Of a stretch of 64,000 bases of DNA, positions 10,016 through 42,629 are shown piece by piece (the stretch's first letter is position 1; every line of letters begins with the position of its first letter). The notes below the pieces were generated by a model. The model did not search any database. It saw only the letters and a program-made list of their open reading frames with translations, and was not told where the DNA came from. Origin of the DNA: Candidatus Poribacteria bacterium (GTDB taxonomy: Bacteria > Poribacteria > WGA-4E > PCPOR2b). The translations under genes and the position numbers were made by a program. The DNA lies in NCBI GenBank assembly GCA_965208325.1, contig OZ242326.1, forward strand, positions 4,480,001-4,544,000, written 5' to 3'.

Positions 10016-10124
10016 TTCGACCTCGTTAAGAAATTGTGTGATGTGTATTTGAAATTGCCATTGTAATCAATTAATACGGCGCGGCATTAGCAGGGCGTTT
10101 TGAAACCCTCCGCGGACGCAGAAA

Positions 10125-10319: not shown

Positions 10320-10374
10320 TTGTCAGATCCTTCGGATGAGTGTTCAACTAAACTACTAAACGTCCGTACTCCCG

Positions 10375-10926: not shown

Positions 10927-11100
10927 TTTATACACCCCCAGAGGTATGGTATGAATGAATCTTCGAAAAAATCACGCGTTGAACGCTGCATTCTTTGAAA
11001 CGCGGCTATGAGCCGCGGCGCGATTTACGGCAAATTTATGGATTTTAATGATTATAGCGTTCAATAGATGTCTGGATTGTAAAGGTAAAAGGTGGCGTTT

Positions 11101-11130
11101 ATTTTAGCACATCACAGTTGACAAATGCAA
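11101..11130 (-). promoter_or_regulatory. Candidate sigma70-type promoter for infC-rpmI-rplT
   Basis: TTGCAT-18 nt-TAAAAT with an extended -10 TG. Confidence 0.45.
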
Positions 11131-11253
11131 GGTAAAATCCTTATTTCACTATGTTCACGGCTAAGACACGATGCCCGCAAGGGGGGTTTTTGGAACGGAA
11201 ATTCCGTTTTCTGCACCCATTCTGTGATTGAACGACCGGCGGGCACTCGCTGG

Positions 11254-12258: not shown

Positions 12259-13200
12259 AAAGTGCCCTTCTACGCTCAACGCAATTAGTTTTCCAAGAGT
12301 ATAACACAATTGAGATGAAAAGCGAGTCTTATCTGTTCTGAAAACGGCAGCTAACGCCGGGTATCATTTTTGCCACAGTTCAACGCATCCTTACCACACT
12401 TTTTGACCCGAATGGTGAAACCTACGCTCGCAGACGCTAGACCCATCGTAGGCGGGGCATCTTGCCCCGCATTGGCAGTTATCTGTTCAACCCAACCTAT
12501 AATAAAAACTATTTTGAGCGTTTCGACATTTGGTGCCGTCAATTCGATAAACGCTGTAAGAATTGGGCATACCGACAACACCTGAAATTATATACCTGTC
12601 GCCCCGCTGGGGCGTGATAGTGGTGAGATTCGGCGTTTCTATACACCTGCCGCCCCGTTGGGGCTGAATAGGTTTTGTAGGTTGGGTTGAGCGACTAATC
12701 GCAAAATCGTTTCGGTGTCCGTACCTCGTCCAATTTCCGCTGCGATGACGTTGAAGAAAATGCAAAGCGATCAAGCGACTGAATAAGGAGTGCGATAGTT
12801 TTCCTGTAGCTCAACCCAACGCTTTTTGGTTTTATCGAGGAGTCACGTCTTTGGTAGATGTGTGAATTATCCTAAGAGCGTTGCCTTGGAGCCCCAGCGG
12901 GGATCTTCAAGCGTATGTAGCAATGTATAGGCGACCCGACATTTAAGGGAATATTTCCGCGATTTTTATTGAAACTTGTTGCAAAATATAGGGTATAATT
13001 TTACAATGGGGCGAACCGCCGCAGCGAAGTGCGTTAGATTGAACCGCGATCGGCTACCTGCGCAAATTAATACGGGAAAGATTTTGGCATATCACTTGCT
13101 ATAACTATTTTGACCAAATATTAATCACTTACTCATTACGCATTACTCATTAATGTTTAAGTTACTGTTGATTGACCCAGAGCAAAAGGAGGAACCTACA

Positions 13201-14001
13201 ATGAAATTGATCGGGTTACAAATCATCGGTCTTTGTCTCGCCGTTTTCCTGTTCGTGGAATTCACCGCATCGGGCAATGCAAAAGTCGGAGCAATTCAAA
13301 TTGAGCTGTCGGGATACGTCAGCAATGACGATGCGCGGCAGATTCGGCGATTGTTAAAGCCGTGGGCGGATCCGGAAAATGTGGTGTTTAAACCTGCGTT
13401 CGACAAAGAGAAACGTAAACGCCATTTCTCAACTGTGGTCGAAATTACCCCGCGATGGGGCAAAAACAGTTATACCGAGAGCCACACTTTTGACATTTAC
13501 AACATTATGCGGCAACTGAACGACCAGCGTTTCCGGGGAAGCCAGATTGGGCCGCGTCCGTGGGTTTCGAAAACCGAAGCCACAGTGTCGGGAGATCTCA
13601 TCGCCTATCATGGATGGTCGCGCAGCCATATCCGAGACGTTCCGAATTGGAGGCGTTGGCGTGAGCACACATCAGAGATCGGTCATGCGTTGTATACGGA
13701 CCGTGCAAATGAGAAGGTTGTATTTAGCAGTAACGACAAGTTCGATGAGTTAAGGCGTGAAGTCAGTAAAGGTGTAGATGAAGGTAAACGTGATCCGGCT
13801 GTTGAGGTCGAGGGCAAGATTGTGGGATTCGACGGCCCCTTCCCTGTGATGTCAATCCGCAAATTTCGCGTGGACTACAAGATTGAAATGCAATCGGGAG
13901 ACAAGGGGAGAAAACAGAAGGACGAGTCCTATGATTATTTGGAGGAATCCTTACCGGAATCGGATGAAATGCCTGAAGATGAGTCGGAGAACGGTAAATA
14001 A
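13201..14001 (+). CDS. Hypothetical exported protein with acidic C-terminus
   Basis: AAGGAGG RBS before ATG 13201; signal peptide MKLIGLQIIGLCLAVFLF; no family recognised. Confidence 0.75.
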   Translation: MKLIGLQIIGLCLAVFLFVEFTASGNAKVGAIQIELSGYVSNDDARQIRRLLKPWADPENVVFKPAFDKEKRKRHFSTVVEITPRWGKNSYTESHTFDIYNIMRQLNDQRFRGSQIGPRPWVSKTEATVSGDLIAYHGWSRSHIRDVPNWRRWREHTSEIGHALYTDRANEKVVFSSNDKFDELRREVSKGVDEGKRDPAVEVEGKIVGFDGPFPVMSIRKFRVDYKIEMQSGDKGRKQKDESYDYLEESLPESDEMPEDESENGK

Positions 14002-14134
14002 CAAGTTCTTGTAGGATCAACCGGCTGAATAAGGAGTGCGATAATTTTCCTGAATAGTCTTCACAAGTTTTGTAGGTAAGGAGATTCGGTTCGGCGAATT
14101 GGAATGATAACGCTGCCGATAATTCAGGTTTTAA

Positions 14135-14171
14135 AGGGAGCGGCACCGCCAGGTGTCTCTCCCTTTTTTTT
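14135..14171 (+). terminator. Rho-independent terminator
   Basis: AGGGAG-CGGCACC...GGTGTCT-CTCCCT stem followed by a T run. Confidence 0.6.
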
Positions 14172-15265
14172 CAGCGTAAAATCAGGAAAGAAACGCAATG
14201 GAAAATGGGTAATTTCCGGTCGAGCCGATGTTGGTGGTTACCTTTTATTGAATTGCACCGGCCCGCTTGTGGTGCGGGTTCATTGAAATCGTGAGGTAAC
14301 CAAAAGGTAACCAAGAAAAAAGATCTGTGAGTCTTTTGAGGGGATTGAAATGCTAATATTTTAGCATAGTTTATAGGGGTGATTTAAAACATTCACTGGC
14401 AGTGAATCGGAAAGAATTTTATCGCAATCGAGAGGCGAAATGGGCGGGAATTTAGCCAGGAACCAATTATCAGTCAATGCGAACGCACAAACGCTAAAGG
14501 GCGCTGTGAAAATTCATCCCCGCGTGAAGGGCGGCGGATTACCCTAAGAATTTGCGGAAACGAGGGAATTTCAACCTCGCGCCATGTGGGTTGATTTTAA
14601 CGGCCGAACAAAGCACAATCAAGCGAGCGAATAGCCGGCGCGATAGTCTTCCCAAGTTAAATCCTCCGCCTTGAGAAAACTTACAATTGCCCGCAAGTCC
14701 GCAAATTCGGGGAGCGTACGGGTTTTCTCCCTTCATTCTTGACGTAACCATGCTGTAAAACACCTGTGGGAAGGGCTTCCTAGCCCTGATTATCGGGACA
14801 GGGATGTCCCTCCCACAGTATTTGTAGGTTGGGTTGAGCGAACCACTGACCGAACAGCGAAGGATCAAGCGACTGAACAAGGAGTGCGATAGTTCTGCTA
14901 TAGTCTTCTGCGTAACCCAACGTATTTTGGTCATTGGAAAGTGTTTGGTATATCCGAACTGCTTCCGAGCAATGAAAAAGCGTTGGGTTACGCTCCATGT
15001 GATGAGCCAAGGGCGTCGGTTGGTGTATTGAACGGTTATTGGCATAGGAACGGATTTGGGATTACCCGCTTAACCCAACCTACAAGAACTTTAAGGATTG
15101 GCGGCGGTGTCTTCGTCCACTTGAGGATTGGACAGAATTCGCAGAGTTCGCTTTCACAGAAGTTATTCAGATGGTGGAAGTCGAATTTCTCGGCTGGTCG
15201 GTGGACAAATGCAACGCGGCGGCGGGGATTGGCGGTAGGGTGTATTACTGGTAGGCTTTACGAAG

Positions 15266-16996
15266 TCATGAGGGTTTCTGCGATTTTTGAATTTTTGCCC
15301 ACGTGTCGCGCAATGATACCGTGCGGTTGAAAACGAGTTTGCCGCTGGACGTGTCATGGTCCACGTAGAAATAGCCCTGTCTTAGGAACTGGTAATGGCT
15401 TCCCGGCACCGCGCCCGCTAAGCTGGATTCGACGCGGCATGAACTCAATACCCTCAACGAATCCGGATTCAGATTGGCTTTGAAATCGGAACCCTCCTCA
15501 ACATCGTCCGGGTCCGGTTTCACAAAGAGGTGGTCGTACAGACGCACCTCGGCTGGGTGTGAATGGGGCGCCGAAACCCAGTGCAGCGTGCCTCTAACCT
15601 TTCGCCCGTCTTCGGACCAGCCGCCCCGCGTCTCAGGGTCGTACGTGCAGTGCAACTCGACCACTTCTCCATGCTCGTCCTTGACGGCACGCTCGCACGT
15701 GATATAGTACGCATGTTTCAGCCGCACCTCGCGCCCCGGCGCCAATCGGAAGTACTTTCTCGGCGGGTCTTCTATGAAATCACCCCGTTCGATGTAGAGT
15801 TCGCGTGAAAAGTGAATCTTTCGTGTTCCGGCGTTAGGCTCCTCCGGGTTGTTGTCCGCATCTAACGCTTCCACTTTTCCCTCCGGATAGTTGTCGATAA
15901 TCACTTTAAGCGGCGACAACACCGCCATCACACGCGGTGCGCGTTGGTTCAAGTCTTGGCGAACGCAATACTCAAGCAGCGCAATATCAACCAAATTGTC
16001 GGCTTTGGCGATACCGATCCGATTACAGAAATCTCGAATCGACTCCGGCGTGTAGCCGCGACGGCGCAGTCCGGACAACGTCGGCATCCGCGGATCGTCC
16101 CACCCGTTGACATAGCCTTCGTCGACCAGTTGGATTAACTTTCGCTTTGCGAGCACGGTGTAGCTGACATTGAGGCGGGCGAACTCGACCTGCTGCGGAT
16201 GATAGATGTCGAGCTGGTCGAGGAACCAGTCGTATAAGGGGCGGTTGTTTTCAAATTCGAGTGAACAGAGCGAATGCGTGATGCCTTCAATTGAATCGGA
16301 GATGCAATGCGTAAAGTCGTACATCGGATAGATGCACCACGTATCGCCCGTTTCATGGTGGGACGCATATAGAATGCGGTACATGACCGGATCCCGCATG
16401 ACCAAATTCGGAGATGACATATCGATTTTAGCGCGAAGTGTGCGAGAGCCTTCCTCAAATTCGCCGGCACGCATACCCGCAAATAGGTCGAGGTTCTCTT
16501 CGACGGAACGGTTGCGGTTAGGGCTTTCCAACCCCGGCTCCGTCAAGGTGCCGCGGTACTTTCCGTATCGAATCTCCTCCGGACTCAGGTCACAGACAAA
16601 TGCCACACCTTTTTTGATTAGCTGCACGGCATATCCATAGAGTTGCTCAAAATAGTCCGATGCGTTGTATTCCCGATCTTCCCAGTCGAAACCGAGCCAT
16701 CGAATGTCGTCTTTAATGGATTCCACAAATTCGACATCTTCTTTGGTGGGATTGGTGTCATCGAACCGCAGATTGTAAAGGCCGCCGTAATCTTCTGCGA
16801 TACCGAAGTTGATACAGATGGCTTTGGCACTGCCCAGATGGATATAGCCGTTGGGTTCCGGCGGGAATCGTGTATGAACCCGTCCGCCGTACTTGTTTGT
16901 CCGCGCGTCTTCATTGATAATCTGCCGGATGAAGTCGGTGGGTTGGGTAGTATCGGTCGAAATTGTATTCACTCGCTCCTCTACATTTTTCTTCAT
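15266..16996 (-). CDS. glnS: Glutamine-tRNA ligase
   Basis: [45 protein letters not shown]. Confidence 0.97.
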
Positions 16997-17009
16997 TTAT
17001 TATCATTAA

Positions 17010-17168
17010 AGGACTTACGCGATAAGTTCATAAGTCCCCCTGATAAGGGATCAAGCGACTGAATAAGGAGCGCGATAGTATTCCTATAGTCTCAGGGGGT
17101 TGAAAACACTGCAATAACGACTATTTAAGTCCAATAGTTCCTTTTTCTGCTCAATTTGCGTAAGTCCT
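17010..17168. mobile_element. MITE-like element with AGGACTTACGC terminal inverted repeats
   Basis: AGGACTTACGC at 17010 and GCGTAAGTCCT ending at 17168; contains a REP interrupted by the ~32-bp unit. Confidence 0.65.
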
Positions 17169-17257
17169 GCATAATCTGCCGCTATTCTTGTGGTTTTCGC
17201 ATAGCCTGAACACGAACTCTAGTCCTAATTGAACTTTCAATGCGAGCCTGCGCCGAC

Positions 17258-18124
17258 TTAATTCGACTGAAGCAACTTTATGACTTTTTGCGCACTCGCT
17301 GATTTTCTGGTGTCTGAGGAGTCCGGCCCGTTCTTATTGAGGGTTTCCAACGATTCAGGGGTGCCAATCCTTCGCAGCGCGGCAGCCGCTGTAATCCGTA
17401 CTTCGGCGCATTCGTGATGGAGGTGGGTTTTTAGCGCCTCAACCAATTCCAGCACGGAATTCGAATGCGCGGCTTTCGTCGCGTTGATGTGGATGCAGCG
17501 CCGATAGCCCTTGCTGCCTAACGCGGCGTGGAACAGCTTGTGGTTCATGAAGATTACATCTCCCGGCGTGTTCACAATCGGATACCTGCCCGGCACGTCT
17601 TCCGGACGTATGTTCAATGATCGGATTGCATTCAAAATTTGTCCGTCCCGGTCGCGCGCCAGCGCCTGGCGGTACGCCGCAAAATGGCTGCCCGGAATCA
17701 CGTTAAGGCATCCATCTTCACTTCCGAGATGATCGAGATAGATATGGGCTCTCATTGTGAAAAAGCCGTCCGGGGCGATGTTGTCGTGGTGCCAGGCGGT
17801 ATCTCCCGTATGCAGGATGCCTTCGCTTGCGGGCAGGATGAAATCGTCGCCGAGTAGATGCCTGAAAATGTCGACAAATCTCTGATCGGTCAATAGGGGA
17901 TAGAACACATCAGGATTGAGGTCGAAGAACGGGACAAACGGGTCGATCAGGTAATTGACCTGCTGTCTTTTATCACCGTGTTCGGGCGGCGGCGCACCAT
18001 CACGCGCGGCTTTCATCGCCGAGTCGAAGGCGTCTGAAAGCACTCGGGTTTCGTGCGGCGAGAAAAACCCCTTGCAATGGATAAAGCCGAACGTCTGAAA
18101 CTGGTTGATAAGCGCTTGATTCAT
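17258..18124 (-). CDS. PhyH (phytanoyl-CoA dioxygenase) family protein with C-terminal HEAT-like repeat
   Basis: WHHD (HxD), GCLNVIPGSH, distal His in KLFHAA; tail EVRITAAAALRRIGTPESL. Confidence 0.88.
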   Translation of the reverse strand: MNQALINQFQTFGFIHCKGFFSPHETRVLSDAFDSAMKAARDGAPPPEHGDKRQQVNYLIDPFVPFFDLNPDVFYPLLTDQRFVDIFRHLLGDDFILPASEGILHTGDTAWHHDNIAPDGFFTMRAHIYLDHLGSEDGCLNVIPGSHFAAYRQALARDRDGQILNAIRSLNIRPEDVPGRYPIVNTPGDVIFMNHKLFHAALGSKGYRRCIHINATKAAHSNSVLELVEALKTHLHHECAEVRITAAAALRRIGTPESLETLNKNGPDSSDTRKSASAQKVIKLLQSN

Positions 18125-18326
18125 GAACTACTTCCTCAATTGTATCTTTCATGGCATTTATCAGATTGGGGCGTGGCTTTCGAAAGCCGCAACCTACAAA
18201 CATTCTCCCCTTTTACAAGGGGGAGTCAGAGGGGGTACATCCCAAACCACGCAAGGCGAACTATGCTTTTTTGTCTCGTAATGGCTTTTTGAGTGTTTTA
18301 GTCCTAACCCGATAACTCCGTTTTTC

Positions 18327-18722
18327 TTAATCGTACTTAATGAGTTGAATTTTGAGCTTGTTCGGTGTAAACAGATGCGCCAACCGGCAACCGCTAGAAT
18401 GGATTTTTTTGAATTGGAAATTCCCTTTACCGACATCAGTTGGCTCGTCGCCGACTTCCAGCCCCTGCGATTTTAGTCTATCGAATGCCGCATCCACATC
18501 GTCCACTTCAAAAGTGATGTGATCCAGTTCTCCGGATGTGCCGTCGGGTTTTAAGATTAGCTCCAATCTGTGGCCTGTATGGACATCTTCAACAAAGGCG
18601 ACCTCTTGAATCTCGCCCACGCCCGGATGGCGAAGGATAAACTTCATCCCCAGGAACTCGCAGAAGGTCTCGATAGCCTTGTCCATATCGTTGACGATGA
18701 TTGCGTGGTGATGCAGTTTCAT
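18327..18722 (-). CDS. VOC/glyoxalase family protein
   Basis: LHHHAIIVNDMDKA...LELI...LDHITFEVDDVD. Confidence 0.88.
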   Translation of the reverse strand: MKLHHHAIIVNDMDKAIETFCEFLGMKFILRHPGVGEIQEVAFVEDVHTGHRLELILKPDGTSGELDHITFEVDDVDAAFDRLKSQGLEVGDEPTDVGKGNFQFKKIHSSGCRLAHLFTPNKLKIQLIKYD

Positions 18723-19088
18723 ATATAATCACTCTCCCATGCTATTATATCACGGTTACGAAAAAGTTGACAGATTAAACATGGGATATTTTAGCGCGGC
18801 GATAGTAAGGAGGAGAAAGAATGTCCGTTGGATCGATTGAAGATGGGGCGAGTGGGTTGTCGAAACTCAAGGTACAAGCACTAGGAAGAACCATAAAAAC
18901 TATCGTCTTTGCTATCCACTCAGTTGATCCGCCTTGGTGAGGAGGGGAATTTTATTCATCCGCAACTCTGATGTTGGTGTGGAAAAGTTGGAACTTAGAG
19001 AAGAAGTTGGACCGTGCCTGGATGGATTTGATTCGATATGTCTTGAATCTATATGTTCAGCAAGTTATTATAATTACTTAACTTTTTT

Positions 19089-19237
19089 TAGGAGTTACGC
19101 AGTTGAACGAATAAAGGTTTGTAGTAGAGCCATTTATTGCCCGTTTTTGCACACAAAATATGTCAGGTTAAGGAAGTGAAAGACCTGCCGGACGCGCAAT
19201 AAATTGCGCTACTACAAACTGAACTGCGTAAGTCCTA
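19089..19237. mobile_element. MITE-like element (same TIR family as 17010) with internal GTAGTAG REP pair
   Basis: TAGGAGTTACGCAGTT ... AACTGCGTAAGTCCTA (15/16 inverted match); internal GTAGTAGAGCCATTTATTG / CAATAAATTGCGCTACTAC. Confidence 0.72.
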
Positions 19238-19320
19238 TTCTTGAACGAAATTTGAAGATTGTACAAAAATGTAATGGGGAATCCACAGTTTTTATGACCT
19301 TATGAGGAGGCTGCACTACT

Positions 19321-20157
19321 ATGAACACGCTGAAAACCGGTTTCCTGCTGACTGCTTTAACGGTGCTAGTGATGTTTATCGGGAGTATGTTTGGTGAGGG
19401 CGGAATGATTATTGCGCTCATGTTTGCAGTTGTAATGAACATCGGTTCCTACTGGTTTAGCGATAGAATTGTCCTGAAGATGTATAAGGCGCAGGAGGTC
19501 GGATCGAACAGCGAATTGTACCGAATGGTAGAGGCACAGGCGCAGCGAGCTGGATTGCCGATGCCGCGCGTCTATGTGATTCCAACCGATTCGCCAAACG
19601 CTTTTGCGACGGGTAGAAATCCGAATAATTCGGCGGTGGCTGCAACGCAAGGAATTATGCGGCTGTTGTCGCGAGAAGAGCTCGCCGGCGTCATTGGACA
19701 CGAACTTGCACACATTAAACACCGCGATATCCTGATTTGCAGTATCGTTGCTACCATGGCCGGAGCGATTATGATGCTTGCTTCCATGGCGCAGTGGGCT
19801 GCAATATTCGGCGGCTTTAGAGGCGATGACGAAGACGACGGAGGCGGCGGCATCTTTGGTTTTCTTTTCATGGTTATTGTGGCGCCGATTGCCGCGATGA
19901 TCATCCAATTTGCTATCTCCCGTTCTCGTGAATATGCTGCCGATCGAGGCGGCGCGGAGATTTGCGGGAACCCGAATGCGCTCGCTCGCGCCCTTCGCAA
20001 ACTTGAGCGCGGCGTCGAAATGTCGCCGATGGAAACTAACGCCGCCACTTCCCACCTTTTCATTGCGAATCCACTGCGCGGCGGGTTCGCAAAGCTCTTC
20101 AGCACGCATCCGCCAATGGAGGAACGCATCCGCCGCCTTGAGGCGATGCGGCGTTAA
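19321..20157 (+). CDS. htpX: Zinc metalloprotease HtpX
   Basis: [40 protein letters not shown]. Confidence 0.97.
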
Positions 20158-20191
20158 TTGCGCTGCCGCGTAAAAAAACGGAGGGGTTGGT

Positions 20192-22930
20192 ATGCTTTTG
20201 AATTTACTCCGATTGTGTGAATTTCGGCTAAAACCGATCCGAATCTCGATCGTTTTGATTCTTGGAATTATGGCGATTGATGGACTTGGCGGCGTCCTTC
20301 ATGCTACAGAAGAACACGCGTCCCAACACCAACTCAAAAACCCGGACGGAACGTGGAAATGGACGAACGCCTTAGTCCACGAGACTAGCCCCTACCTGCT
20401 CTTGCACGTCCACAACCCGGTGGAATGGTATCCTTGGGGTGCGGAGGCGCTGGAGCGCGCGAAAGCTGAAAATAAGCCGATTTTTCTGTCAGTCGGCTAC
20501 TCAACATGTTATTGGTGCCACGTTATGGAAAGGAAGGTCTTCTCAAATCCGGAAATTGCCGAACTAATGAATCGGTGGTTTATCAACATCAAGGTAGACC
20601 GTGAGGAACGTCCGGATATTGACGAAATCTACATGACGGCAACCCAAGTCATGACGCAGCACGGCGGTTGGCCGAACTCTGTCTTTTTAACGCCGGACCT
20701 GCTGCCATTTTTCGCGGGCACCTATTTCCCACCGGAGGACAGCGTCGGCCGCCCCGGTTTTCCGCGCATCCTACGAGGTGTTCATGACGCGTGGATGAAT
20801 CAACGGGAATTGGTTATTGACCGGGCGAAGCAGATTACCGCGGTTATCAGACAAGCGACAAGTGAGGGCATTGTCGAAAGCGGTGAAACGCCGGTAGATC
20901 GGCAACTGATTGAATCTGGCATAGATTATCTCACTGGAAGGTACAGCGCCGACTACGGCGGATTCGGCGATGCACCGAAATTTCCTAGCCCAACCAATCT
21001 TGAGTTTTTGCTGGGTGAATATCAGCGCCGGACTGTGACGCCGATTCGGATTGATTCGGCATTCGCGAGGGATTTGGATGACGGGCGATTTCCGACGGAT
21101 TTACGACACGCGCTTGAACATGCAGGCGTCTCACTTTCTGAAGACGTCGTCGTTTCGGTCAAAGCGAACGGCGCCGAATGGACAATCACTGATGTTGCGA
21201 ACAAACAGACTTACCGTGTCAATGCGGATAGGGGCGAGCTTACGATTTATCGACCGGCTGAGGCGCTACTCAAGATGATTTCCCATACGCTCGACATGAT
21301 GGCATACGGCGGGATGTACGATCAGATAGGAGGCGGATTCCACCGGTACTCGGTCGATGCGAAATGGCTTGTTCCCCACTTCGAAAAGATGCTCTATGAC
21401 AACGCACAACTGGCAAAAGTTTACTTGCATGCATATCGTCTGACGAAGGAGCCGCTCTACCGGTCAATCGCCGAAGAGATTTTCGAGTTCGTTTTCCGCG
21501 AGATGACGTCACCCGAAGGCGGTTTTTACTCTGCAATTGACGCGGAGGTAGATGCGGAGGAAGGCAAATACTACGTTTGGACAGAGGCGGAGGTTAGGAA
21601 GATTTTAGGGAAGCGGAAGGCGAAGTTGTTCAATAAGGTTTACGGTGTAGACAAAGGGCATAATTTTGAGGGAGAAACGAATATCCTGTATCTACCTGAT
21701 CCGATAGCGAGCGCGGCAAAGGCTGAAGGGAAGTCTGAGGAAGAATTTCTTAGGCAGCTTGAACCACTCAAAAGCAAGCTGCTGGCTGCGCGAGAGAAAC
21801 GGAAGCGTCCATTACTCGACACGAAAGTGATAACAAGCTGGAACGGATTAATGATTGACGCGCTCGCGTACGGTTATGAGGTACTGGCAGATACGCGTTA
21901 CCGCGACGCGGCGCAGAAGGCGGCGGAATTCATCCTGGAGCACTTGACGAGAGCGGACGGACAGTTGATGCGGACTTACAAAGACGACATTGCCAAATAT
22001 GACGGCTACCTCGATGATTACACCTTCGTCGTTCGGGGATTGCTTGGGTTGTACCGCGCAACCGGCGAAGGTCGATGGCTGAAAGAGGCAAAGTCTCTAA
22101 ATGACACCATGATTCGACTGTTCTGGGACAACGAAGGCGGAGGATTTTACTTCACGCTCGCCGACCAGGAATACCTTGTGGTTCGCACCAAGAATCCTTA
22201 TGATTCCGCACTTCCATCGGGAAATGCCGTGGCAATCAACAACTTACTCACTCTCACGGGCCTAACGGGTGAAAAGGATTATCTCGGCAAAGCCGAGAAT
22301 AGCCTTCGCAGCTTCGCTAGCGTGATGGCGCAATCGCCCGGCGGCTTTATGCACATGCTCATGGGCGCCAACAACTATCTCTCGACAGATTGGACAGAGG
22401 CTGCGGGCGCGCAGGAAAAACAACACCCTGAATTAGCGACCAAGTTGAAGGGAGAGGGTGGTATTAAAGCCAATTCTCCGCTGAAGAGCCTAAGCGGAAT
22501 CGGTTTGCCCGCAGGAAACGACGTTGTGAAAGTCTCGGTACCAGAATTGTCGAAAAAGCAGATTTCCCACCAACGCCCGTTTGATATCGAAGTTCAACTA
22601 GAGATTGACGACGGCTGGCACATTAACGCCAATCCAGCGTCTGACGATTTCCTCATTCCCACCACCTTATCGGTTAGTCCAGACGCGGCGGTTGAAGTCA
22701 TCTCGGCGTCATATCCCAAAGGGAAGCCACTGAAATTTAGCTACAACGACGACCCCCTGTCTGTTTATGAAGGCGTGCTCACGATTCAGATGCAACTGCA
22801 AATGAAACCAGGTGTTTCCCGTGAGGAGGCGTTTCCCGTGAACCTGAACCTTGAGTATCAGGCGTGCGATGATCAGCGTTGCCTGCCGCCGTCAACTGAT
22901 TCGATCCAGCTTAAGTTGGACCATCGTTAG
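20192..22930 (+). CDS. YyaL/SSP411-type thioredoxin-domain protein with C-terminal DsbD-N-like domain and a ~70-aa internal insertion
   Basis: [51 protein letters not shown]-terminal GWHINAN...[12 protein letters not shown]. Confidence 0.9.
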
Positions 22931-23106
22931 CAGTTTGACCGGACGCCTAGCTAACCTTTATTCATGGGGCAAAACCTTGTGCTATATGGTGAAGTTTTCC
23001 GTAAAATACCCAAAGACGTACCCGCCAATTTCCGTGTGATAAACCGCTTTAACGATGACATCCAACCTCAAGAAGATGCCAGGAAATGCGATGATAGGTG
23101 TGAACC

Positions 23107-23856
23107 ATGAGCGATCGAAATATCAAACTCACGATAGAATACGACGGTACGCACTTTCACGGCTGGCAGATTCAGCGGAATGCGGCGACGATTCAGGAAG
23201 TCGTCCAGAACGCGCTCACGAAAATCACACAAACCGAGACGCAGATTGTCGGCGCGGGCCGAACAGACACAGGCGTACACGCTTCGGGCCAAGTTGCAAA
23301 TTTTCACACACACGCCCAGATGTCCCCGGCTGCGCTCCAGAAAGCGGTTAACGCGCTGCTTCCGAGTGACATCGTGATCACTGGCGCGGAAGAAGCCTCG
23401 GCGGATTTTCACGCCCGTTTCAGTGCATTGAGCCGAACCTACCGATACACCATCCTCAATCGTGTCTATCCCTCCGCTTTCCTCCACAATCGGGCATATT
23501 TTTTGCCTCGTCCAACGATTAACGTGGACGCGGCGAATGCGGTTTGCCGGGCGTTAATCGGCAACCATGATTGTTCTTCATTCCAGCGGACAGGCGGGGG
23601 CCGCGCAAACCCGGTATGCGACATTTACGATTCCCGCTGCTGGAAGGAAGAAGACCTGGTCCACTTCGAGATTGAGGCAGATGCTTTTTTGCGCGGCATG
23701 GTTCGCGCGATTGCCGGTACGATTCTGAAGCTTCATGACAGCGCGTCGCCGGTCGATGAGTTTCGCAAGATTCTCGAGGCGCGCGACAGATCGGCGGCGG
23801 GAGCTTCAGCACCCGCACACGGCTTGTGTTTGACTCGAGTGAAATATGACCCGTGA
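23107..23856 (+). CDS. truA: tRNA pseudouridine(38-40) synthase
   Basis: YDGTHFHGWQ, GAGRTDTGVHA, FLRGMVR, APAHGL. Confidence 0.97.
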   Translation: MSDRNIKLTIEYDGTHFHGWQIQRNAATIQEVVQNALTKITQTETQIVGAGRTDTGVHASGQVANFHTHAQMSPAALQKAVNALLPSDIVITGAEEASADFHARFSALSRTYRYTILNRVYPSAFLHNRAYFLPRPTINVDAANAVCRALIGNHDCSSFQRTGGGRANPVCDIYDSRCWKEEDLVHFEIEADAFLRGMVRAIAGTILKLHDSASPVDEFRKILEARDRSAAGASAPAHGLCLTRVKYDP

Positions 23857-24227
23857 AAGAGATTCAAAGGACTTGAAAACATAGCCGCCGGAACGAAAGT
23901 CAAAATATCACCTTCCTCCGCATACGCACAGACCACGCCGTATTTGACTACCGACCCGCCTTACGCCCAATCGACGCCGGACAGCAGTTGAGTTTTACCT
24001 GAACGCAACCTCCACCGTACGAAACTGCACGAAATCGTTCACGAGAAATGCAATCTTGCACTATTTGGGGCAGTTACAGCGGGAGTTAACGAAGCGTCGA
24101 ATTGGCTGAAAGACGCTACCCGCTTGAATTTTCGAATTGTAGCGCTCTGGCATACAAATTGCGTGTTTCCTGCCTGAAATTCACACAGTCGGATGGAGAT
24201 TTTCGGAAAGGAAGGCGAGCGCCCGCA

Positions 24228-25040
24228 ATGAAGTTGCCCACGATTTCGATTGGACCGCACCGTGTCAGCAAGTTGATTATTGGCGGCAATCCGTACAGCG
24301 GGATTTCACACCATTCCCCTGCGAAATCGAAAGAGATGGAGAATTATTACACTTCCGCGCAGATCATGCGGGATTTACGGGAGGCGGAGCGGTGCGGAAT
24401 TAACACCGTGCTTGCCCGTGCGGACCGGCATATCATGCGGGTATTAAATGAATACCGCGGTGCAGGCGGAAAGATTCAGTGGATTGCGCAGACGGCGAAG
24501 CGAAACGAATACGCGGATCTCATGGATCATATTCGTCTAATTGCGCGTTATCAACCGATAGCTATCTATCAGCACGGCGGAACGACCGATCAGTTCTACG
24601 ACGAAGGAAAGCTCGAATCTCTGCGCGACGCTTTGGCGCTAATTCGAGAACTGGGCTTTGCGGCAGGTATCGGAACTCATGACCCGCGCATACTGAAGCA
24701 TTGTTACCACGAAGGATTCGATGTCGATTTCTACGTCTGCGCACTTTACAATCACACGCGCCGTCCAGAAATGTACCTGCCAGCTGATCGAGATGCTGCA
24801 ATTGCGGCGATTCAGGCGGTGCATCTGCCGGTGATTGCCATCAAAGTGCTCGCCGCCGGGCGCACCGAACCGGTTCCTGCGTTCCGATTTACGCTCGACC
24901 GCATCAAGCCGATTGATGCCATTGCGGTTGGCATGGATACGAATGGGCGACCGGAGCTCATCAACGATAACGTGACATTGGCCGGTAAAATGATTAATCC
25001 TATCGACTCACCAAGGACAGATGAAAGGAGTACATCGTGA
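24228..25040 (+). CDS. Conserved hypothetical protein, aldo/keto-reductase-like
   Basis: VSKLIIGGNPYSGISH, AGIGTH, IAIKVLAAGR; start likely MKLPT. Confidence 0.7.
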   Translation: MKLPTISIGPHRVSKLIIGGNPYSGISHHSPAKSKEMENYYTSAQIMRDLREAERCGINTVLARADRHIMRVLNEYRGAGGKIQWIAQTAKRNEYADLMDHIRLIARYQPIAIYQHGGTTDQFYDEGKLESLRDALALIRELGFAAGIGTHDPRILKHCYHEGFDVDFYVCALYNHTRRPEMYLPADRDAAIAAIQAVHLPVIAIKVLAAGRTEPVPAFRFTLDRIKPIDAIAVGMDTNGRPELINDNVTLAGKMINPIDSPRTDERSTS

Positions 25041-25657
25041 TACAGTATTTGCCGCGCTTTTTTTGCATGTTGATGTGTGTGTTATTGAGCGGCTGCGGCA
25101 TAATTTTGCCGCAATCTGACTACATCTGGAGTGAGAACTACGCGCTGGACAAAAATGGCGGACGCAGTTCTATCCCAGAAGTAAACGACGGGAATTTGGA
25201 AACGTTTGGGCGGCTCGGAGTAAAAGCTGTAGGAACACTCAATAGGGCAAGGAGCAGAGACACGGCAACTCAGTCACCCCTGGAGTTAAGAACGTTCGGC
25301 AGAAGCTACTCATTTGCGGAAGCCGAGGTTTTCCCGCAGGTCAACATTCAATTCCGAGAAAAGTTGCCGATTGACAAAATTATCATCCACGGGACGAATG
25401 TCTACACTTTGGATGTCTATTGGCGAGATGATGAATCCAAATGGCAGCAATTGGCGGGCCTTCGTCAAAACCCCAAAAATCCCATCGTCATCCGTGAACA
25501 CGCCGTAACCGATGCCATACTTATTGATGTGAGACCTCGAAAGCCGGTTCCGTCAAGGCAGTCGATGTACCGATCACTCGAATTTGCACTTGAAGCTGAA
25601 GCGCACATAGCAGAGATTGAAATTTACGGGAAGATGCCCAAGAAGGCGAGTTTATAA
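25037..25657 (+). CDS. Hypothetical lipoprotein, possibly discoidin-like
   Basis: Lipobox LLSGC; NDGNLET and IAEIEIYG motifs; AAGGAG RBS. Confidence 0.75.
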   Translation: MIQYLPRFFCMLMCVLLSGCGIILPQSDYIWSENYALDKNGGRSSIPEVNDGNLETFGRLGVKAVGTLNRARSRDTATQSPLELRTFGRSYSFAEAEVFPQVNIQFREKLPIDKIIIHGTNVYTLDVYWRDDESKWQQLAGLRQNPKNPIVIREHAVTDAILIDVRPRKPVPSRQSMYRSLEFALEAEAHIAEIEIYGKMPKKASL

Positions 25658-25782
25658 GGGGACGTGGTTTCTGTGAAGCTGCTTCTAGCTTGTAGAACCT
25701 CTCGCTTCAGCATAAGGAGCATGAAACCCATTAAAAACTCGGTTTCAAGGGCAATTTGAAGCATCCGATGTATTAAAGACGT

Positions 25783-26712
25783 TTAAGGTTTTACCGGTAG
25801 ATTTTTGAACACTTTGAAATTATCGAATTTTGTGCCTTTGTACGATGTACCTCCCTTTATTGTCCAGACGCCCGCTTTCCCACTTTCATAGCGTTCAGGG
25901 GTGTGGTCGGATGCTTCCAACAACCATGTGCCCGGTTCGGATTCGCCTTTCGGCCAGACTTTGGCCTTCAAATAGGTGTAGGCATCGTGGGTCGTAACCT
26001 CAAACTGAAAAATGTACCAACGGTTATCTTTGAGGTGTAGGTCTATTTCGTTCAGATAAATATTTCCGTACCTGCCCTGCTCAATGGGAACGCGTTTGGC
26101 AATTTGGAGTTTTTTGTGAACATCGGACGTTCGAAGCCTGTAATTCTCGAGGGAGGAGTTCCAGTAGGCGAACACACCGGCATCGCCGGAGTGATCAATG
26201 CGGAGTTCCGCCTGAACGACGTAACTGGCCCAATCCTTTTCCCCAACAAGCGCGGCGCTATTTGGCGCGTTTCTGTTCGACTGTTCCAATACACGGCTGC
26301 CCGAGGTAGAAATGCCCCATCTTCCGCCGGAAGGGAAATTCCATTCCTTCTGATCCTCTACACTTGTCTTGCTTTCGAAGTTGTCCTCAAACAGTGTTTC
26401 GCGGCGAATCCCGCGTAGTTGAGACAGTTTCTTTTCGAGCGTATTGACCCTCGCTTCAAGTTTTTCCTTTTGCTGAACTTTTATCAGTAACTGCGTTTTC
26501 TCGGGGATGACTATCTTTTGTTCCGCCTTAATTACGTCAGGATTAGAGATGCTGTTATACTTGGCGAGTTGCGGCCATAACGAGACATCCTGTAGATTTT
26601 CTTTAGCTATTTTCTCAAGCGTATCGCCCTTTTGGACGGTGTAGAGATTTTCCTCTGCTATCACAATATTACAGCACAGTGTAACCATTAAAACCACGCC
26701 AAGAAACTTCAT
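25783..26712 (-). CDS. Exported LysM-domain protein with coiled coil and lectin/DUF1080-like C-terminal domain
   Basis: Signal peptide; YTVQKGDTLEKIA...LAKYNSISNPDVI (LysM); C-terminal GKAGVW...KFDNFKV. Confidence 0.82.
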   Translation of the reverse strand: MKFLGVVLMVTLCCNIVIAEENLYTVQKGDTLEKIAKENLQDVSLWPQLAKYNSISNPDVIKAEQKIVIPEKTQLLIKVQQKEKLEARVNTLEKKLSQLRGIRRETLFEDNFESKTSVEDQKEWNFPSGGRWGISTSGSRVLEQSNRNAPNSAALVGEKDWASYVVQAELRIDHSGDAGVFAYWNSSLENYRLRTSDVHKKLQIAKRVPIEQGRYGNIYLNEIDLHLKDNRWYIFQFEVTTHDAYTYLKAKVWPKGESEPGTWLLEASDHTPERYESGKAGVWTIKGGTSYKGTKFDNFKVFKNLPVKP

Positions 26713-26911
26713 GATTTAGTCTCCTATTGAGTTCATGAGTTGTTCGTGCGGACGAGAGAAATCGAGATTTCGAGACAAAACCCGGGTACGCCGCTAAAGG
26801 AACGTTGAAATTGTACCCGATTGAGCGGGGAAAGGGCAAACCAGAAATGAAACAATCGACATGAATCGAAACCGCGATTTGAAAAAGTTCGTTTTGGCAG
26901 AGGCGGACGCT

Positions 26912-27282
26912 TTTATGCGGGGCAAGGAAAATCTCTATCGCACTCCCTATTCAGTTGATTAATCCCCGCCTACGGAGAGAGCGAAAGGGGGGGAAGATTC
27001 GGTGCCTACGGATGAAGGGTATGGAACAACTTTATTTTCCCCCAATGTTTAGACAGTGATGTGTGTCTATAAACGGGTGATTTTGTGCGGGGGTAGTAAG
27101 TTTTCAGACAGTGGTTTCGGCACACGGAGTGTGCCTACTACTTTATGCGGGGCAAGGAAGAACTCTATCGCACTCCCTATTCAGTTGCTTGATCCCCGCC
27201 TACGGAGAGAGCGAAAGGGGGGGAAGATTCGGTGCCTACGGAAGAAGGGAATGGAACAACTTTACTTACCCCCAATGTTTAG
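26912..27282. repeat. Two ~140-bp direct repeats (26912-27052 and 27142-27282) built from a REP, the ~32-37 bp unit and flank
   Basis: TTTATGCGGGGCAAGG...CCCCGCCTACGGAGAGAGCGAAAGGGGGGAAGATTCGGTGCCTACGGA...CCCCCAATGTTTAGA occurs twice. Confidence 0.9.
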
Positions 27283-27445
27283 AGAGTTATGCCAGTTTAT
27301 TAAGGGGTAATTTTGGGCGGGGGATAGTACGTTTTCACGCAAAATGGAATATGAACAAGATTGGAACTCGGCAAAAAGAGTCTCATTTAACCATTTCGAC
27401 AACAGGAAAGGGAGTTATATACATTAGTGCCCATTCCTGAAACGC

Positions 27446-27610
27446 TCAGGAATTTTCTTCTTCTTTCTCTTTCCGTTTGATTCCGAACAGTGCCCTTGCG
27501 ATGTTTTCGGGCGTGTCCAAAATAGGTTTCACACCCTTCGCAAATGCTGTGCTTGTATTACGTTTTTTTGTACGCCGTTTCGACACATTTCCCTTCCTTT
27601 TTCTTGCCAT
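27446..27610 (-). CDS. Small basic passenger protein (54 aa; not in ORF track)
   Basis: MARKRKGNVSKRRTKKRNTSTAFAKGVKPILDTPENIARALFGIKRKEKEEENS; AAGGGA RBS-like sequence upstream. Confidence 0.55.
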   Translation of the reverse strand: MARKRKGNVSKRRTKKRNTSTAFAKGVKPILDTPENIARALFGIKRKEKEEENS

Positions 27611-27694
27611 TTTATACTGTCCCTTTCGTTTGGGTCATCTCTCTTGTTATTAGATGTGACTTGTGATATACTTTCCGTGAAAGGAGATTATATC

Positions 27695-27886
27695 GTGGAA
27701 ACAACACTCACAACCTTACTATCATTGACTTTGTTGCCACCAGCAGTTATCATTGGTGTAATCTTTTGGACAACCAATGCACTGCGCAATCAAATGCAAC
27801 GAGAACATGACAAGCTCTGGCACAAAGTTGATTCGCTTGAAAAATTGCTCATTGAGCACATAAAAGACCGAAACCTTCATAATTAA
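27695..27886 (+). CDS. Small membrane-anchored coiled-coil passenger protein (63 aa)
   Basis: AAGGAG RBS before GTG 27695; one TM helix then heptad-like segment; hairpin plus T run downstream at about 27909-27934. Confidence 0.65.
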   Translation: METTLTTLLSLTLLPPAVIIGVIFWTTNALRNQMQREHDKLWHKVDSLEKLLIEHIKDRNLHN

Positions 27887-28066
27887 ATCGCCCGTCCCAA
27901 ATCCCACCGCCCCAGTTTTTGCAGGGGCTTTTTTGTTGTCCTTTCTGGATTTTACCCCTTGACATTTATTAGCGTATAGGCGATCATTTAGGGGCACTGC
28001 TGGGGACATTGGGTCGCCAACAGTGTAACCTGAAAACCTATGCCACGACTGGATTCGTGGCGTTTT

Positions 28067-28934
28067 TTATGTTAAGGAGACGATACATGTTTCGAGTAGT
28101 TTGCAGTACCCTTTGTTTGCGGCACATCGAACCCAATCTGCCATTTGGCTATGGGTATCAAGCCGTCGCCGATTGTGGCGACCGAGAAACTCGCTGATGT
28201 ACCGGTTTAAGTGTTTAACACTCATTTTGTGATAAACACCCTTGTAGCCGCGCTTGAGCGATGCCCAGAACGATTCGATGCCGTTTGTGTGGACTTTGTC
28301 TCGCACATATTCGCCAATCGAATGCGCAACAAACGCATGTTTGCGCGGCAATCCCCTATAGGCACTTGCTTGGTCAGTGTAGACCGTCGTATCCGGTGTT
28401 GTGTGTTTAAGCACAAAACTCTGAAGCGATCGACGGTCTGCTCTGTCCACGACTCGTGCCGTCACTTGATTTGTTCCCTTCGCGGCCGCCGATAAGCGTC
28501 TCATCAACTTCCACCTCCCGCGCAAAGACATCATTGGTAGAGTCATACGCTTGGCGAATGCGATGAAGCATGTGCCATGCGGACTTCTGGGTAATTCCCA
28601 AGTCTCGGTGCAACATCAAACTGGAGACGCCTTTCAGGCTAGTGTTGATGAGATAGATTGCAATCACCCACTTCTGGTATCCGAGGTTGGAAGCATGCAT
28701 AACTGAATTGGTCTTTGCGGAGAACCGCTTACCACAGCTACGACACCGATAAGGCATTGTAGCGTGCTTTGCGTGAGTGTTCACGTTGTCACTATCACAA
28801 TAAGCGCATCGAATCCCATTGGGCCACCGACACTTGACAAACCATTGTTCTGCTGTTGAGTCATCAGGGAATAGTTGAAACAGTTCGACGAGTGTGATAC
28901 CATTTCTGTAGTGTTTTCCAGGGGCATTTTTCAC
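28067..28934 (-). pseudogene. IS1595-family transposase, split by internal deletion/frameshift near 28490
   Basis: Zn ribbon (CAYC...CRSC) and EVEVDET.IGG in one frame; VYTD, HTNGIESFW, GVYHKMS.KHL.RY in another. Confidence 0.88.
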
Positions 28935-29018
28935 AATCAATTTCCTTTGCTAAAATCAAATCAATCCTTCATTTTAACATAATTCGACACTAATGTATAT
29001 AAATCCCCAGGAAAGGGA

Positions 29019-30272
29019 CAGGGCAAACGCATCTAAATTTTGTGCTTGACATGAGAGGAATTTGGGATATGCTTGTGTAAAATCTTCCAGAGGCGCATTC
29101 CCCATGTCTAATCCCCCTATTTCCTCTATTGAAGCGCATTTTGAGTCATTGCCAGATCCTAGACGAGTTGATTGTCAGCACACCCCATAAATTGCTTGAT
29201 ATTGTCGTAATTACTATCTGCGGGGTTATTTGCGGCGCCGATAATTGGGTGGCAATTGAAGCATTCGGAAACGCCAAGCATGAATGGCTAGCCAAGTTTT
29301 TGGAATTACCGAAAGGCGTCCCGTCGCACGATACATTCAGGCGTGTGTTTAGTGCGATGAACGCTGCCAAATTCGAGGCATGTTTTATCAACTGGATGCG
29401 GAGTGCCATTGAAATGACACAAGGTCAAGTGATTGCCGTTGACGGAAAACAGCTTCGTCGTTCCGATGATACTCATAACAACAAATCAGCCATTCACTTG
29501 GTTAGCGCTTGGGCCTGCCATCAAGGGGTAGCGCTAGGACAACTTAAAGTTGCCGACAAGTCGAACGAGATTCCAGCCATACCCCAATTACTTGAAGTAT
29601 TGGACGTGTCAGGGTGCATTGTTACTATTGATGCGATGGGTTGTCAAACCGACATCGCTCAAACCATTGCGGATTCAGAAGCCGACTACGTTTTCGCGCT
29701 TAAAGCCAATCAAGGACAGTTGTATGAAGATGTTCAACTTCTGTTTGATGGCGTCTCAACCGGCGGCATAAGAGATATAAAGGTCAACTCGACGCAAACA
29801 ATTGACGGCAATCATGGACGTATTGAAACCCGTTCTGCTTATGCGATTGCAGACCCCGGTGTAATTTCCACGCTTAGAGCAAGTGAAAACTTTGTCAATC
29901 TCAACTCAATCGTCAAAGTTATTGCCGAGCGCGAAGTCAACCAAAAGATAACCACGGAGTCACGTTACTACATTTCTTCACTTCCCGGTGATGCACAACA
30001 GTTGCTTGAAGCCACCAGACATCACTGGCGGATTGAAAACTCATGTCATTGGGTGTTGGATGTTGCTTTCCGTGAGGACGCCTCTCGGATTCGTAAAGAT
30101 AACAGCGGAGAGAACTTCGCCATTATCCGACGCATCGCGCTCAATTTACTCAAGGCTGAAAAGTCAACCAAACTTGGCGTCGCAAACAAACGGCTCAAAG
30201 CCGCATGGGACAACAATTACTTGACTACTATTTTAGAAACTCTATTCTGAATAATCAGGTGCGTTTGCCCTG
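29019..30272 (+). mobile_element. ISAs1-family insertion sequence
   Basis: TIRs CAGGGCAAACGCA / TGCGTTTGCCCTG; 10-bp target duplication AGGAAAGGGA at 29009-29018 and 30273-30282. Confidence 0.95.
29104..30250 (+). pseudogene. ISAs1 transposase with +1 frameshift near 29165-29185
   Basis: ATG 29104 gives MSNPPISSIEAHFESLPDPRRV then TAA at 29188; the rest (HKLLDIVVITIC..GADNW, PSHDTF, IAVDGK, KSNEIPA, TIDAMGCQ, HWRIEN..HW.LD..F.ED) is in the next frame. Confidence 0.85.
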
Positions 30273-32303: not shown

Positions 32304-33259
32304 GGTTAACCTCAGTATTATACCATTATTATGTATTTATAGTGGATTTTACTTACGCCTAATGTAAGGTTACGGCACACGGCGTGTGCGAAATACGTTA
32401 TCGCGGCTGGAAGCCGCTCCCACAGGGGAAGGTTAAAGTAAATTCATGTAAAGACTATCGCCTGCGCTATTCGGGGATTGGCTGTGCGGGGGTGGGGTCA
32501 TTGGAAGGGAGGAAGGATGGAAGGGGTTGCGATTGGCGATGCTGTCTGAACTGTGATTAAATGATGGGGTATGATTAAGGGAGTGTATAAGTATTCGGAA
32601 GTTGATTGGATTGAGGGCGGTTTTTAAGATTGAAGTCCGTTTAAGACTATCGCCCTCCCTATTCAGTCGGTTGATCGTTGGGTTTCGCTACATCTATTGG
32701 ATCTTGTACATGGTTAGGTTGACAGTGTTATTCGTTTAAGTGTGCGGTTTTTGAATGGATCCGCTCTACCCAACCTACAAGAGCAAGATGAAGGGACGTT
32801 ATTTGGATATTGCGGCGCGTATGGTGTGTGCATGGTATGTTGGGCGGAAATCGTTTGTAGAAAGGTTACGGCACACGGCGTGTGCGAAATACGTTATCGC
32901 GGCTGGAAGCCGCTCCTACAGGGTTTACTTGCCCCCAATGTTTAGACAGCTATGGCGGTCTGTTAATGGGTAAATTGAGTTGGAGGTAATACGTTTTCAC
33001 GCAAAGGTTACGGCACACGGAGTGTGCCTACTACTATGTGCGGGGCAAGATGCCCCGCCTACGGGTGAAGAGAATGAAACAACCGAAAGTGATATACTTG
33101 GTTTGGACGACGAACCTACCGCCGCGTACGAATCAACATTGTTTTACTATGGCATAGAACTCGGAATCAATCTATGCTATAATAAAAATATCGTCCAGCA
33201 GCGTACTCCGAGCGAAATCTGCTGGAAATTGGCGCATATAATTCAAAGGGGACGAACGG

Positions 33260-40942: not shown

Positions 40943-41155
40943 TGAATAAGTATAGGAGTTACGCAGTTGAACGATTGGGTGTTGTAGTTTAATGCTTCAT
41001 CACCAATGCGGGGCATGGGGAAAACTATCGCATTCGCAATCCGCTCAATTGATCCCCGCTTACGGAGGGTAGTGGGGTACTATACACCTTCGGCCCTCTT
41101 GGCGCTGTATAAAATGCATTTTCGAACAAGTTCTAAGGTACGATTCGCTTGCAGG

Positions 41156-42366: not shown

Positions 42367-42629
42367 CGATTTATTGTGAATTAATGATTTTATAATCCTG
42401 ATAAACCCTATAGCACTCGCGAATCGCTCGCTTAATCCTAGGCTGGGGGCTTTGACAGAAGATAACTGGTGCTGTAAACACTGAATTTCTGAACAGGTTC
42501 TTTAATGGCGTCGCCGGATTTCGCAGCGTCTCAATATTCCCCACGATTGGTTAAGAACGGAATCATCAGTGATATTTGAATCCACCCTGTGCCGCTCCCA
42601 TAGGAGAGTCGGCAGCACTGCGGATGCCG

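Follow-up and report, generated by a model that had tools for sequence, protein, structure and literature searches.

A short hairpin-bearing insertion unit in and around REP elements of Candidatus Poribacteria

Introduction

What is the short piece of DNA that splits a REP hairpin in this Candidatus Poribacteria genome, that of a sponge symbiont, and does it move by itself? In the window analyzed here, a stretch of 64,000 nt (positions 4,480,001 to 4,544,000 of contig OZ242326.1, assembly GCA_965208325.1), the minus strand of 27147-27203 carries a REP-A element whose sequence runs GTAGGCGGGG, then the unit, then TTGCCCCGC, whereas a paralogous REP-A on the minus strand of 33040-33062, with the same upstream CGGCACACGGAGTGTGCC hairpin, is empty (GTAGGCGGGGCATCTTGCCCCGC). 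Over a longer stretch, 33004-33065 reads CGGCACACGGAGTGTGCC..GCGGGGCAAG-ATG-CCCCGCCTAC, and 27118-27205 has identical flanks with 37-38 nt replacing ATG. A preliminary description of this DNA had taken 27118-27205 and about 33011-33064 for the filled and empty forms of one site, which these sequences confirm. It had further proposed a minimal, non-palindromic mobile unit, with no ORF and no long TIR, that targets REPs and is perhaps inserted at nicks made by an HUH/RAYT-type nuclease. As checks, it suggested scanning the whole genome with a profile, measuring the fraction of copies in REPs, looking for empty orthologous sites and for copies beside HUH/RAYT, IS110 or reverse-transcriptase genes, and asking whether the unit is the terminus of a known IS.

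Results

Copies and extent of the unit

The unit measures 35 nt from ATCAA, or 37 nt with the preceding GG, and is laid out as (G/C)G-ATCAA-NN-GA-NN-GAATA-NN-GA-NN-GCGATAG followed by a tail of about six variable nucleotides. Searched at up to three mismatches, the 32-mer consensus of the preliminary description returned five sites in the window against 0.00 expected from shuffles. In the host genome, a single contig of 4.71 Mb with 49.4% G+C, 244 copies were found at up to nine mismatches (104 on the plus and 140 on the minus strand), and the profile scan returned 303 copies at E ≤1e-3 and 341 at E ≤0.01; the total, 244 to 341, is set by the threshold, be it a mismatch count or a profile E value. 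When copies were aligned with 60 nt of flank, a block of about 37 nt stood out at 1.6-1.9 bits per position between flanks of about 0 bits. All 14 places that had been listed in the window, in both orientations, were recovered by the genome-built profile, compared with 4.1 copies expected from the genome mean, and two partial heads (14835-14863 and 55519-55545) were found besides. The unit had been called always intergenic, which holds for 259 of the 303 profile copies on a crude ORF map covering 83.5% of the genome; the other 44 lie inside mapped ORFs, probably for the most part spurious ones. TAAGGAG, which had been counted as part of the unit, is present in only 19 of 244 copies, within the variable stem.

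The copy that raised the question occupies 27159-27195 on the minus strand (35-nt core 27159-27193; 37 nt from GG) and was found by both the profile and the covariance model, at 55.9 bits. Its neighbor at 26929-26965 (minus strand) also lies in a REP-A, and the two belong to a 230-nt tandem duplicate (26912-27093 and 27142-27323). A further REP-A holds the copy at 41019-41055 (minus strand), directly after GTAAGCGGGG. REP-B-type elements harbor the copy at 12768-12804 (plus strand), which sits in the hairpin, the copy at 32641-32677 (minus strand), which stands directly 3′ of the 3′ arm (AACCCAACG^), and a nested pair in the loop at 14835-14898 (plus strand), where an outer head (14835-14863) is followed by a full inner unit (14862-14898) and then by the outer tail. 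The copy at 17048-17084 (plus strand) lies within the hairpin CCCCCTGA..TCAGGGGG, that at 18894-18930 (minus strand) lies 3′ of a CCTCCTnnnnAAGG-type hairpin, and that at 14014-14050 (plus strand) lies directly 3′ of GTAGG. At 7758-7794 (plus strand) the unit forms the 5′ end of a composite element of about 220 nt, and 55483-55545 (minus strand) is a nested pair made up of a full unit (55483-55519) and an upstream partial head (55519-55545). The series is completed by a copy at 14616-14652 (plus strand), an old, degenerate copy at 42402-42438 (minus strand), and a degenerate partial unit at 32446-32474 (minus strand; profile E 0.00095). Host hairpins other than REP-A had been reported at 17036-17100 (CCCCCTGA..TCAGGGGG) and near 12674-12830 and 14821-14931 (GTAGGTTGGGTTGAGCG..AACCCAAC), and they were found there.

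Insertion points and empty sites

Sorted by left junction, 23 of the 244 copies follow GTAGGCGGGG (REP-A), 35 follow the REP-B 3′ arm AACCCAACG, and 19 lie in the REP-B 5′ arm or loop; 14 follow CGTAGGGG (REP-D), 17 have another GTAG within 8 nt, and 15 follow a CCTCCTTnnnAAGGAGG hairpin. Another unit is the host for 53 copies, of which 35 stand directly after its head and 18 in its loop, and the remaining 68 have other junctions. Under a slightly different rule set, 123 of 244 units (50.4%) lie at defined REP/hairpin junctions, compared with 3.0% of 20,000 random intergenic points; since copies are not independent, this enrichment reflects association, not how many insertions took place. The idea of REP targeting stands as a strong enrichment at fixed points of GTAG-type REPs, but non-GTAG hairpins, a CRISPR repeat, and the unit itself are hit too. 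Common to the sites is a G-run and then C (GG^C), not a constant place in a hairpin. Immediately 5′ of ATCAA, at least 203 of 244 copies have a G.

REP-A offers the fullest series of filled and empty sites. Among 310 elements with both arms present, 218 are empty with a 4-5-nt loop (CATCT in 191), 20 are singly filled (38-39 nt) by units from at least two subfamilies, and eight are nested doubles, unit in unit (74 nt). A flank search gave candidate empty paralogues for 58 of the 244 copies, or for 51 under stricter rules, which correspond to 31 distinct empty sites. In 30 of the 31 the insertion point comes directly after a G, a figure somewhat favored by the left flank query having carried the copy's own two end bases, and C follows it in 24; the net gain is 33-37 nt at 22 of them, with a mode of 35. 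Among the targets are GTAGGGG^CGAGG, the unit itself at GAGGG^CGATAG, AACCCAACG^CTTTT, and GTAGTAGGG^CAAT. No direct repeat was seen at the joints of filled/empty pairs. The 5′ joint is exact, and at the 3′ joint zero to five target bases are altered or lost (CG becoming C, T, TT, or TC). ATC/GATC as a duplicated target, as for HIP1/SDR5, was considered and rejected because empty sites lack ATC.

One target lies in the only CRISPR array found in the genome, outside the window (G000:C1:3307471-3310535; about 42 repeats of 37 nt). There, the outer portion of the array's first repeat has given way to a unit, at AAAAG^CGGAC. The repeat of that array is unrelated to the unit and units are irregularly spaced; the unit is not a CRISPR repeat. 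It is a discrete insertion module with sharp ends, placed in one orientation directly after G-runs.

Comparison with a sister genome

We compared the window with 67.5 kb of the sister genome G002, whose genes are 90-95% identical. Six of the 14 window copies are at places common to both genomes, and the units there differ at 12, 5, 9, 8, 4, and 3 of 35 nt, that is, at 8-12 of 35 nt in three of the six. Among the shared places, 14014-14050 has the same junction and another stem variant in G002 (12 of 35 nt differ), 14616-14652 differs at 5 and 42402-42438 at 4 of 35 nt, 18894-18930 shows a compensatory stem change, and the nested pair at 55483-55545 is common to both. The remaining eight copies lie in stretches that are missing from G002 or unalignable; the copy at 32641-32677, for instance, is inside about 430 nt missing there. 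The search for empty orthologous sites yielded one clean unit-only difference, at 12768-12804, where the flanks align and just the unit and a few bases are missing in G002 (42-nt indel); given AGC microhomology and no outgroup, it may be an insertion here or a deletion in G002.

Two larger differences in the window involve units. A 3.3-kb stretch, 26912-30272, is absent from G002 and has the 26929 and 27159 copies at its left edge. It begins with the 230-nt tandem duplicate and contains an IS1595-like transposase split into two ORFs (28067-28940, minus strand) and an IS4-like DDE transposase (29129-30250, plus strand) with three close copies elsewhere in the genome. In three sister genomes, the position corresponding to 7754-7984 lacks the non-coding element of about 220 nt; this element lies between the two forms of a near-repeat, TTCCGTCACCG and TTCCGTCCCCG, and resembles a MITE insertion with an 11-nt duplication. 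In four short-read DNA runs examined over 7500-27400, contigs end at repeats.

These comparisons bear on whether the unit is merely a passive component of mosaic REP clusters, comparable to the additional motifs in E. coli BIMEs, that moves only with its host REPs through RAYT action, duplication, or gene conversion. Grouped by their flanks, the 244 copies represent about 75 contexts, and many of them are not independent; large groups have both flanks in common, as a passive block would give, namely context clusters of 14-31 copies and the REP-A and REP-D composites, yet 47 of the 75 contexts are single. Carriage along with a host would equally account for the 7758 copy, which arrived within the 220-nt element, for the 26929 and 27159 copies in their tandem duplicate, and, by way of gene conversion, for the different unit variants at orthologous sites. 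It does not sit well with a conserved block that ends sharply against flanks of about 0 bits, with an equal 35-nt gain in unrelated hosts and always after G, with self-nesting at one fixed internal point, or with the unit-only indel at 12768. We regard purely passive spread as rather unlikely.

A covarying hairpin

The unit had been described as non-palindromic. Its copies are nevertheless structured and share a hairpin of the form NN-GA-NN / GAATA loop / NN-GA-NN, with four Watson-Crick pairs and tandem G.A. The top three mutual-information pairs of all position pairs are 12:20, 9:23, and 8:24, and pair 12:20 is C-G in 87, G-C in 85, and A-T in 10 of 208 distinct copies; the GA/GA stem positions are nearly invariant. 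In 13 window copies, 94.2% of cells are paired compared with 67.6% after shuffling, and none of 500 shuffles was as high. A covariance model made from these 13 was then used to align 145 copies, comprising the window copies and 99 of 137 loci of other genomes, fetched with a degenerate pattern that leaves the eight stem positions unconstrained. In this alignment, 96.6% of cells are paired (64.4% shuffled) and 244 cells are changed on both sides (42.8 shuffled), with none of 500 shuffles reaching either observed value, and covariation is seen in all four hairpin pairs. Controls at slid positions gave 23-57% pairing. RNAalifold, run unguided, predicted exactly the same four pairs. Folding energy by itself did not set the hairpin apart (z -0.1 and -0.7). 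Energy calculations also predicted an alternative helix that joins stem positions 19-25 to the tail, which was rejected by eye because the tail varies between genomes.

Among the 832 cells of the 208 distinct copies, G-U pairs (81) outnumber A-C pairs (25), so the written strand is the folding one, whether as RNA or as single-stranded DNA. For units between co-directional genes, this strand is sense in 88 cases and antisense in 43; it matches the direction of most local genes in 158 cases and runs opposite in 86. Neighboring units 300-5000 nt apart are co-oriented in 72 of 92 pairs. Clusters of six to eight units within 6 kb are almost all co-oriented. Such co-orientation could come from local duplication, transcription direction, or insertion bias. 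Orientation does not switch between the GC-skew halves, a weak test of replichores since the skew curve is poor, only 1.5 Mb separating its minimum from its maximum in a 4.7-Mb genome. A weak association with the sign of local skew was seen (193 against 110).

Compensatory changes, strand-specific G-U pairs, and the preference for the sense strand are all features that a functional structured RNA would show, for example a protein-binding hairpin of transcripts that stabilizes mRNA ends and whose structure is kept by selection for function. A GAATA pentaloop and tandem G.A are classic protein-binding features of RNA, and by that analogy the hairpin might be bound as well. Nesting is hard to reconcile with such a role, since inner copies disrupt the outer hairpin (18 of 244 lie in another's loop), and so are copies inside other selfish repeats and a CRISPR repeat. 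Nor does the unit have a constant gene neighbor; eight of the 14 window copies are missing from the sister species, and the distribution over genera is patchy. Against Rfam, no family matched the unit: the whole window at gathering score gave a T-box elsewhere only, and 26880-27340 searched at E up to 10 gave nothing below E 2.8. A look-up of RNA data for 7500-17400 listed no data set that contains this stretch. The unit is not a known RNA family, and we consider conservation for an RNA function improbable. The T-box leader (9061-9327, minus strand; 102.8 bits, gathering score 93) lies upstream of a 349-aa ORF (8003-9052, minus strand).

Distribution

The exact degenerate pattern, for which a reversed control gave 0 matches, was searched in 41 genomes. 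It has 93-122 copies in each of four genomes of the host's own genus (g1) and 196-466 in each of four genomes of g11, a genus from a different family in the same order; three further genomes have one or two copies, one g5 genome has 10, and 29 of the 41 have none. With the covariance model, 16 of 151 sampled genomes of the phylum gave matches: all four of g1, all nine of g11, the single g9 genome, and two of 20 from g5, compared with none of 100 genomes of family f2. In one g5 genome, all 21 unit matches are on four of 130 contigs (C72, C83, C91, and C116), 11 of them within 5.5 kb of C72. These contigs may be mis-binned from a g11-type genome or may be acquired islands, and g5 is accordingly not counted as a unit holder. 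A scan of public genomes gave at least 137 loci, and among the matches listed all are from Candidatus Poribacteria; viral contigs gave 0 unit matches, plasmids none, and phages one 20-nt chance match. Among the lineages searched, the unit is confined to two, both in Poribacteria.

In other genomes, the tail is mostly GCGATAGAGATCC, and GGATC..GATCC end pairing with four to five matches is found in 63 of 155 copies, compared with 17 of 244 in the host genome. Nesting was seen in 39 of those 155 copies.

Search for a mobilizing enzyme

Of the 41 genomes searched, 36 carry Y1/HUH genes. The host genome has two, with GTAGGCGCGG REPs flanking one and AAACCGAG..CTCGGTTT hairpins flanking the other, and no unit lies within 3 kb of either. 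One of the two, the second RAYT-like gene (G000:C1:3321737-3322303), has a separate hairpin repeat family (AAACCGAGTTTTTTCTTCAAAACTCGGTTT) on both sides. Three Y1 types, the relatives of both host genes and a third type from g11, were followed over the 41 genomes and do not track the unit; many unit-free genomes have them and some unit-bearing ones lack them. The proposal of insertion at nicks made by an HUH/RAYT nuclease thus finds no RAYT link, either in the neighborhood of the host's Y1 genes or in the distribution.

Units do lie close to Y1 genes in g11: across three genomes of that genus, a unit was located no more than 350 nt from 13 of the 18 Y1 matches (distances computed by hand). Six of 17 g11 Y1 loci were read base by base, and the parsed units lie in or beside REP-type hairpins flanking the genes; at one of these genes (L177), the upstream REP is empty and the downstream REP has a clean 35-nt insert at GGGG^CG. 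Such nearness would also be expected of the passive motif weighed above, the units being in the flanking REPs. It is a consequence of REP targeting and does not point to the enzyme responsible for movement.

No copy in the host genome could be linked to an IS110 gene either: IS110 DEDD and TnpB domains each gave 0 matches there. Nor did the unit prove to be the terminus of a resident IS: the 12 largest of 65 multi-copy gene families have no regular unit at their ends; units as ends of Tn5-like, ISL3, IS4-like, and DUF1670 elements were considered individually, and none was found at those ends. The DUF1670 element, 2.04 kb long with two genes and present in four copies at 99.9% identity (G000:C1:79405-81450 and three other places), looks mobile from its sequence, though without a recognized transposase domain. 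Insertion through an RNA copy and reverse transcription, which has reportedly been proposed for the small dispersed repeats (SDRs) of cyanobacteria, would suit an exact 5′ and a ragged 3′ joint like those of target-primed copying, and the structure could be the RNA's, but it is very improbable with 0 RVT_1 candidates in the host genome and in G002, each of which has about 100 or more exact-pattern copies, RVT_1 being present in 17 of the 41 genomes searched.

Discussion

We started from a REP hairpin split by 37-38 nt and find a discrete unit whose mobility, as first proposed, agrees with its roughly 75 contexts, sharp ends, filled and empty paralogues, self-nesting, and unit-only indel relative to the sister. 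The explanation we prefer, at a probability of about 0.55, is that it is a very small non-coding insertion module which moves by itself, with its hairpin read by the machinery and with HUH-type single-strand chemistry; the HUH step alone is much less certain. Its copies share one orientation relative to the target and stand immediately 3′ of a G-run (GG^C), with no target duplication. The stems and loops of several GTAG-type REP families provide such sites, as do other G-rich hairpins, a CRISPR repeat, and G25^C26 inside the unit, and this self-target accounts for the nested head-head-tail-tail arrangement. Once in a REP or larger repeat, the unit is amplified passively with its host as well. 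Compensatory change would preserve the hairpin because the moving machinery reads the single strand by shape. The likeliest route, we infer, would be cleavage and joining of single-strand DNA by a trans-acting enzyme of the HUH/Y1 type, which a fixed short target sequence, one orientation, and no duplication would fit. Four points speak against the HUH step: the unit has one hairpin where IS200/IS605 ends have two, its 3′ joint is ragged, which HUH chemistry should not leave, no matching enzyme was found, and the junction is unlike the C^T cut by E. coli RAYT (PMC3479197).

A more tentative reading is that a 35-nt hairpin module transposes alone through an enzyme or host process so far unlinked to any mobile element, at GG^C in DNA prone to be single-stranded, such as REP hairpins, CRISPR repeats, and its own body; we give this a fairly low probability. 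If a self-transposing 35-nt module is confirmed, it would be among the smallest mobile DNAs known. Its effects on the genome are tangible, as the unit breaks short-read assemblies at every copy and reshapes REPs, intergenic regions, and a CRISPR array.

Comparison with known systems

We found no description of such a repeat of Poribacteria in the literature, and four kinds of known element invite comparison. In E. coli, BIME mosaics place additional motifs between their REPs, among them the IHF-binding RIP/RIB motif. Like these, the unit is a conserved non-REP motif of about 35 nt between or within REPs, but it also occurs in 47 single contexts and nests in itself, and its hairpin covariation is unlike a double-strand protein site.

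Members of IS200/IS605 and their miniature derivatives (PATEs) have two end hairpins and measure at least 100 nt. Resembling them, the unit sits immediately downstream of a short fixed sequence, with a single orientation and no duplication, and has an imperfect hairpin on one strand. It differs in being 35 nt long with a single hairpin and a ragged 3′ joint, with no matching TnpA and no clear replication-strand bias; neither hairpins at both ends nor a Y1 transposase tracking the element was found.

REPs and REPINs with their RAYT (a Y1 HUH enzyme) are short, intergenic, hairpin-forming, and read as single strands (PMC3479197, PMC3116915), and the E. coli RAYT/TnpA-REP cuts C^T (PMC3479197). 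The unit too is short, intergenic, and hairpin-forming, lives mostly in or beside REPs, and in g11 is common near Y1 genes. In contrast to them, it starts with (G)GATCAA, has a variable stem, does not form inverted doublets, and has a G^C or G^A junction instead of C^T; no cognate RAYT was found for it, and neither the GTAG tag nor a conserved palindrome is present. It is neither a REP nor an IS end.

The closest known kind, likened here by description, is the SDRs of cyanobacteria. These are said to be 21-27 nt long, to lie in other repeats and in copies of themselves, and to have structure with compensatory changes; SDR1-SDR8 of Nostocaceae were reportedly described by Elhai et al. in 2008 (Genome Res 18:1484). 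The unit appears similar in being tens of nucleotides long (below about 40), repeated in hundreds of dispersed copies, gene-free, nested or embedded in other repeats, and compensatory in its structure, with an exact target point. SDR5 is located between nt 3 and 4 of HIP1 (PMC4390886), and SDRs are reported only from Nostocaceae (PMC5861425). Against this, the unit has 35-37 nt, a tandem-G.A hairpin with a GAATA loop, and a GG^C target mostly in GTAG REPs and not in HIP1, and it belongs to Poribacteria, as do all of the at least 137 loci among the matches listed.

Ever since the description of SDRs in 2008, the spread of repeats only tens of nucleotides long has called for an explanation, and the unit is a second, independent case, in another phylum. 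Its rules are clear (an exact 5′ end, a GG^C target, a covarying hairpin, and self-nesting at a fixed point), and at least 13 genomes, many of them assembled in one to three contigs, hold hundreds of copies, so that the mechanism is testable by comparative genomics and with oligonucleotides in vitro. If the unit does transpose alone, the SDR phenomenon would be no cyanobacterial oddity but a wider class with a shared mechanism.
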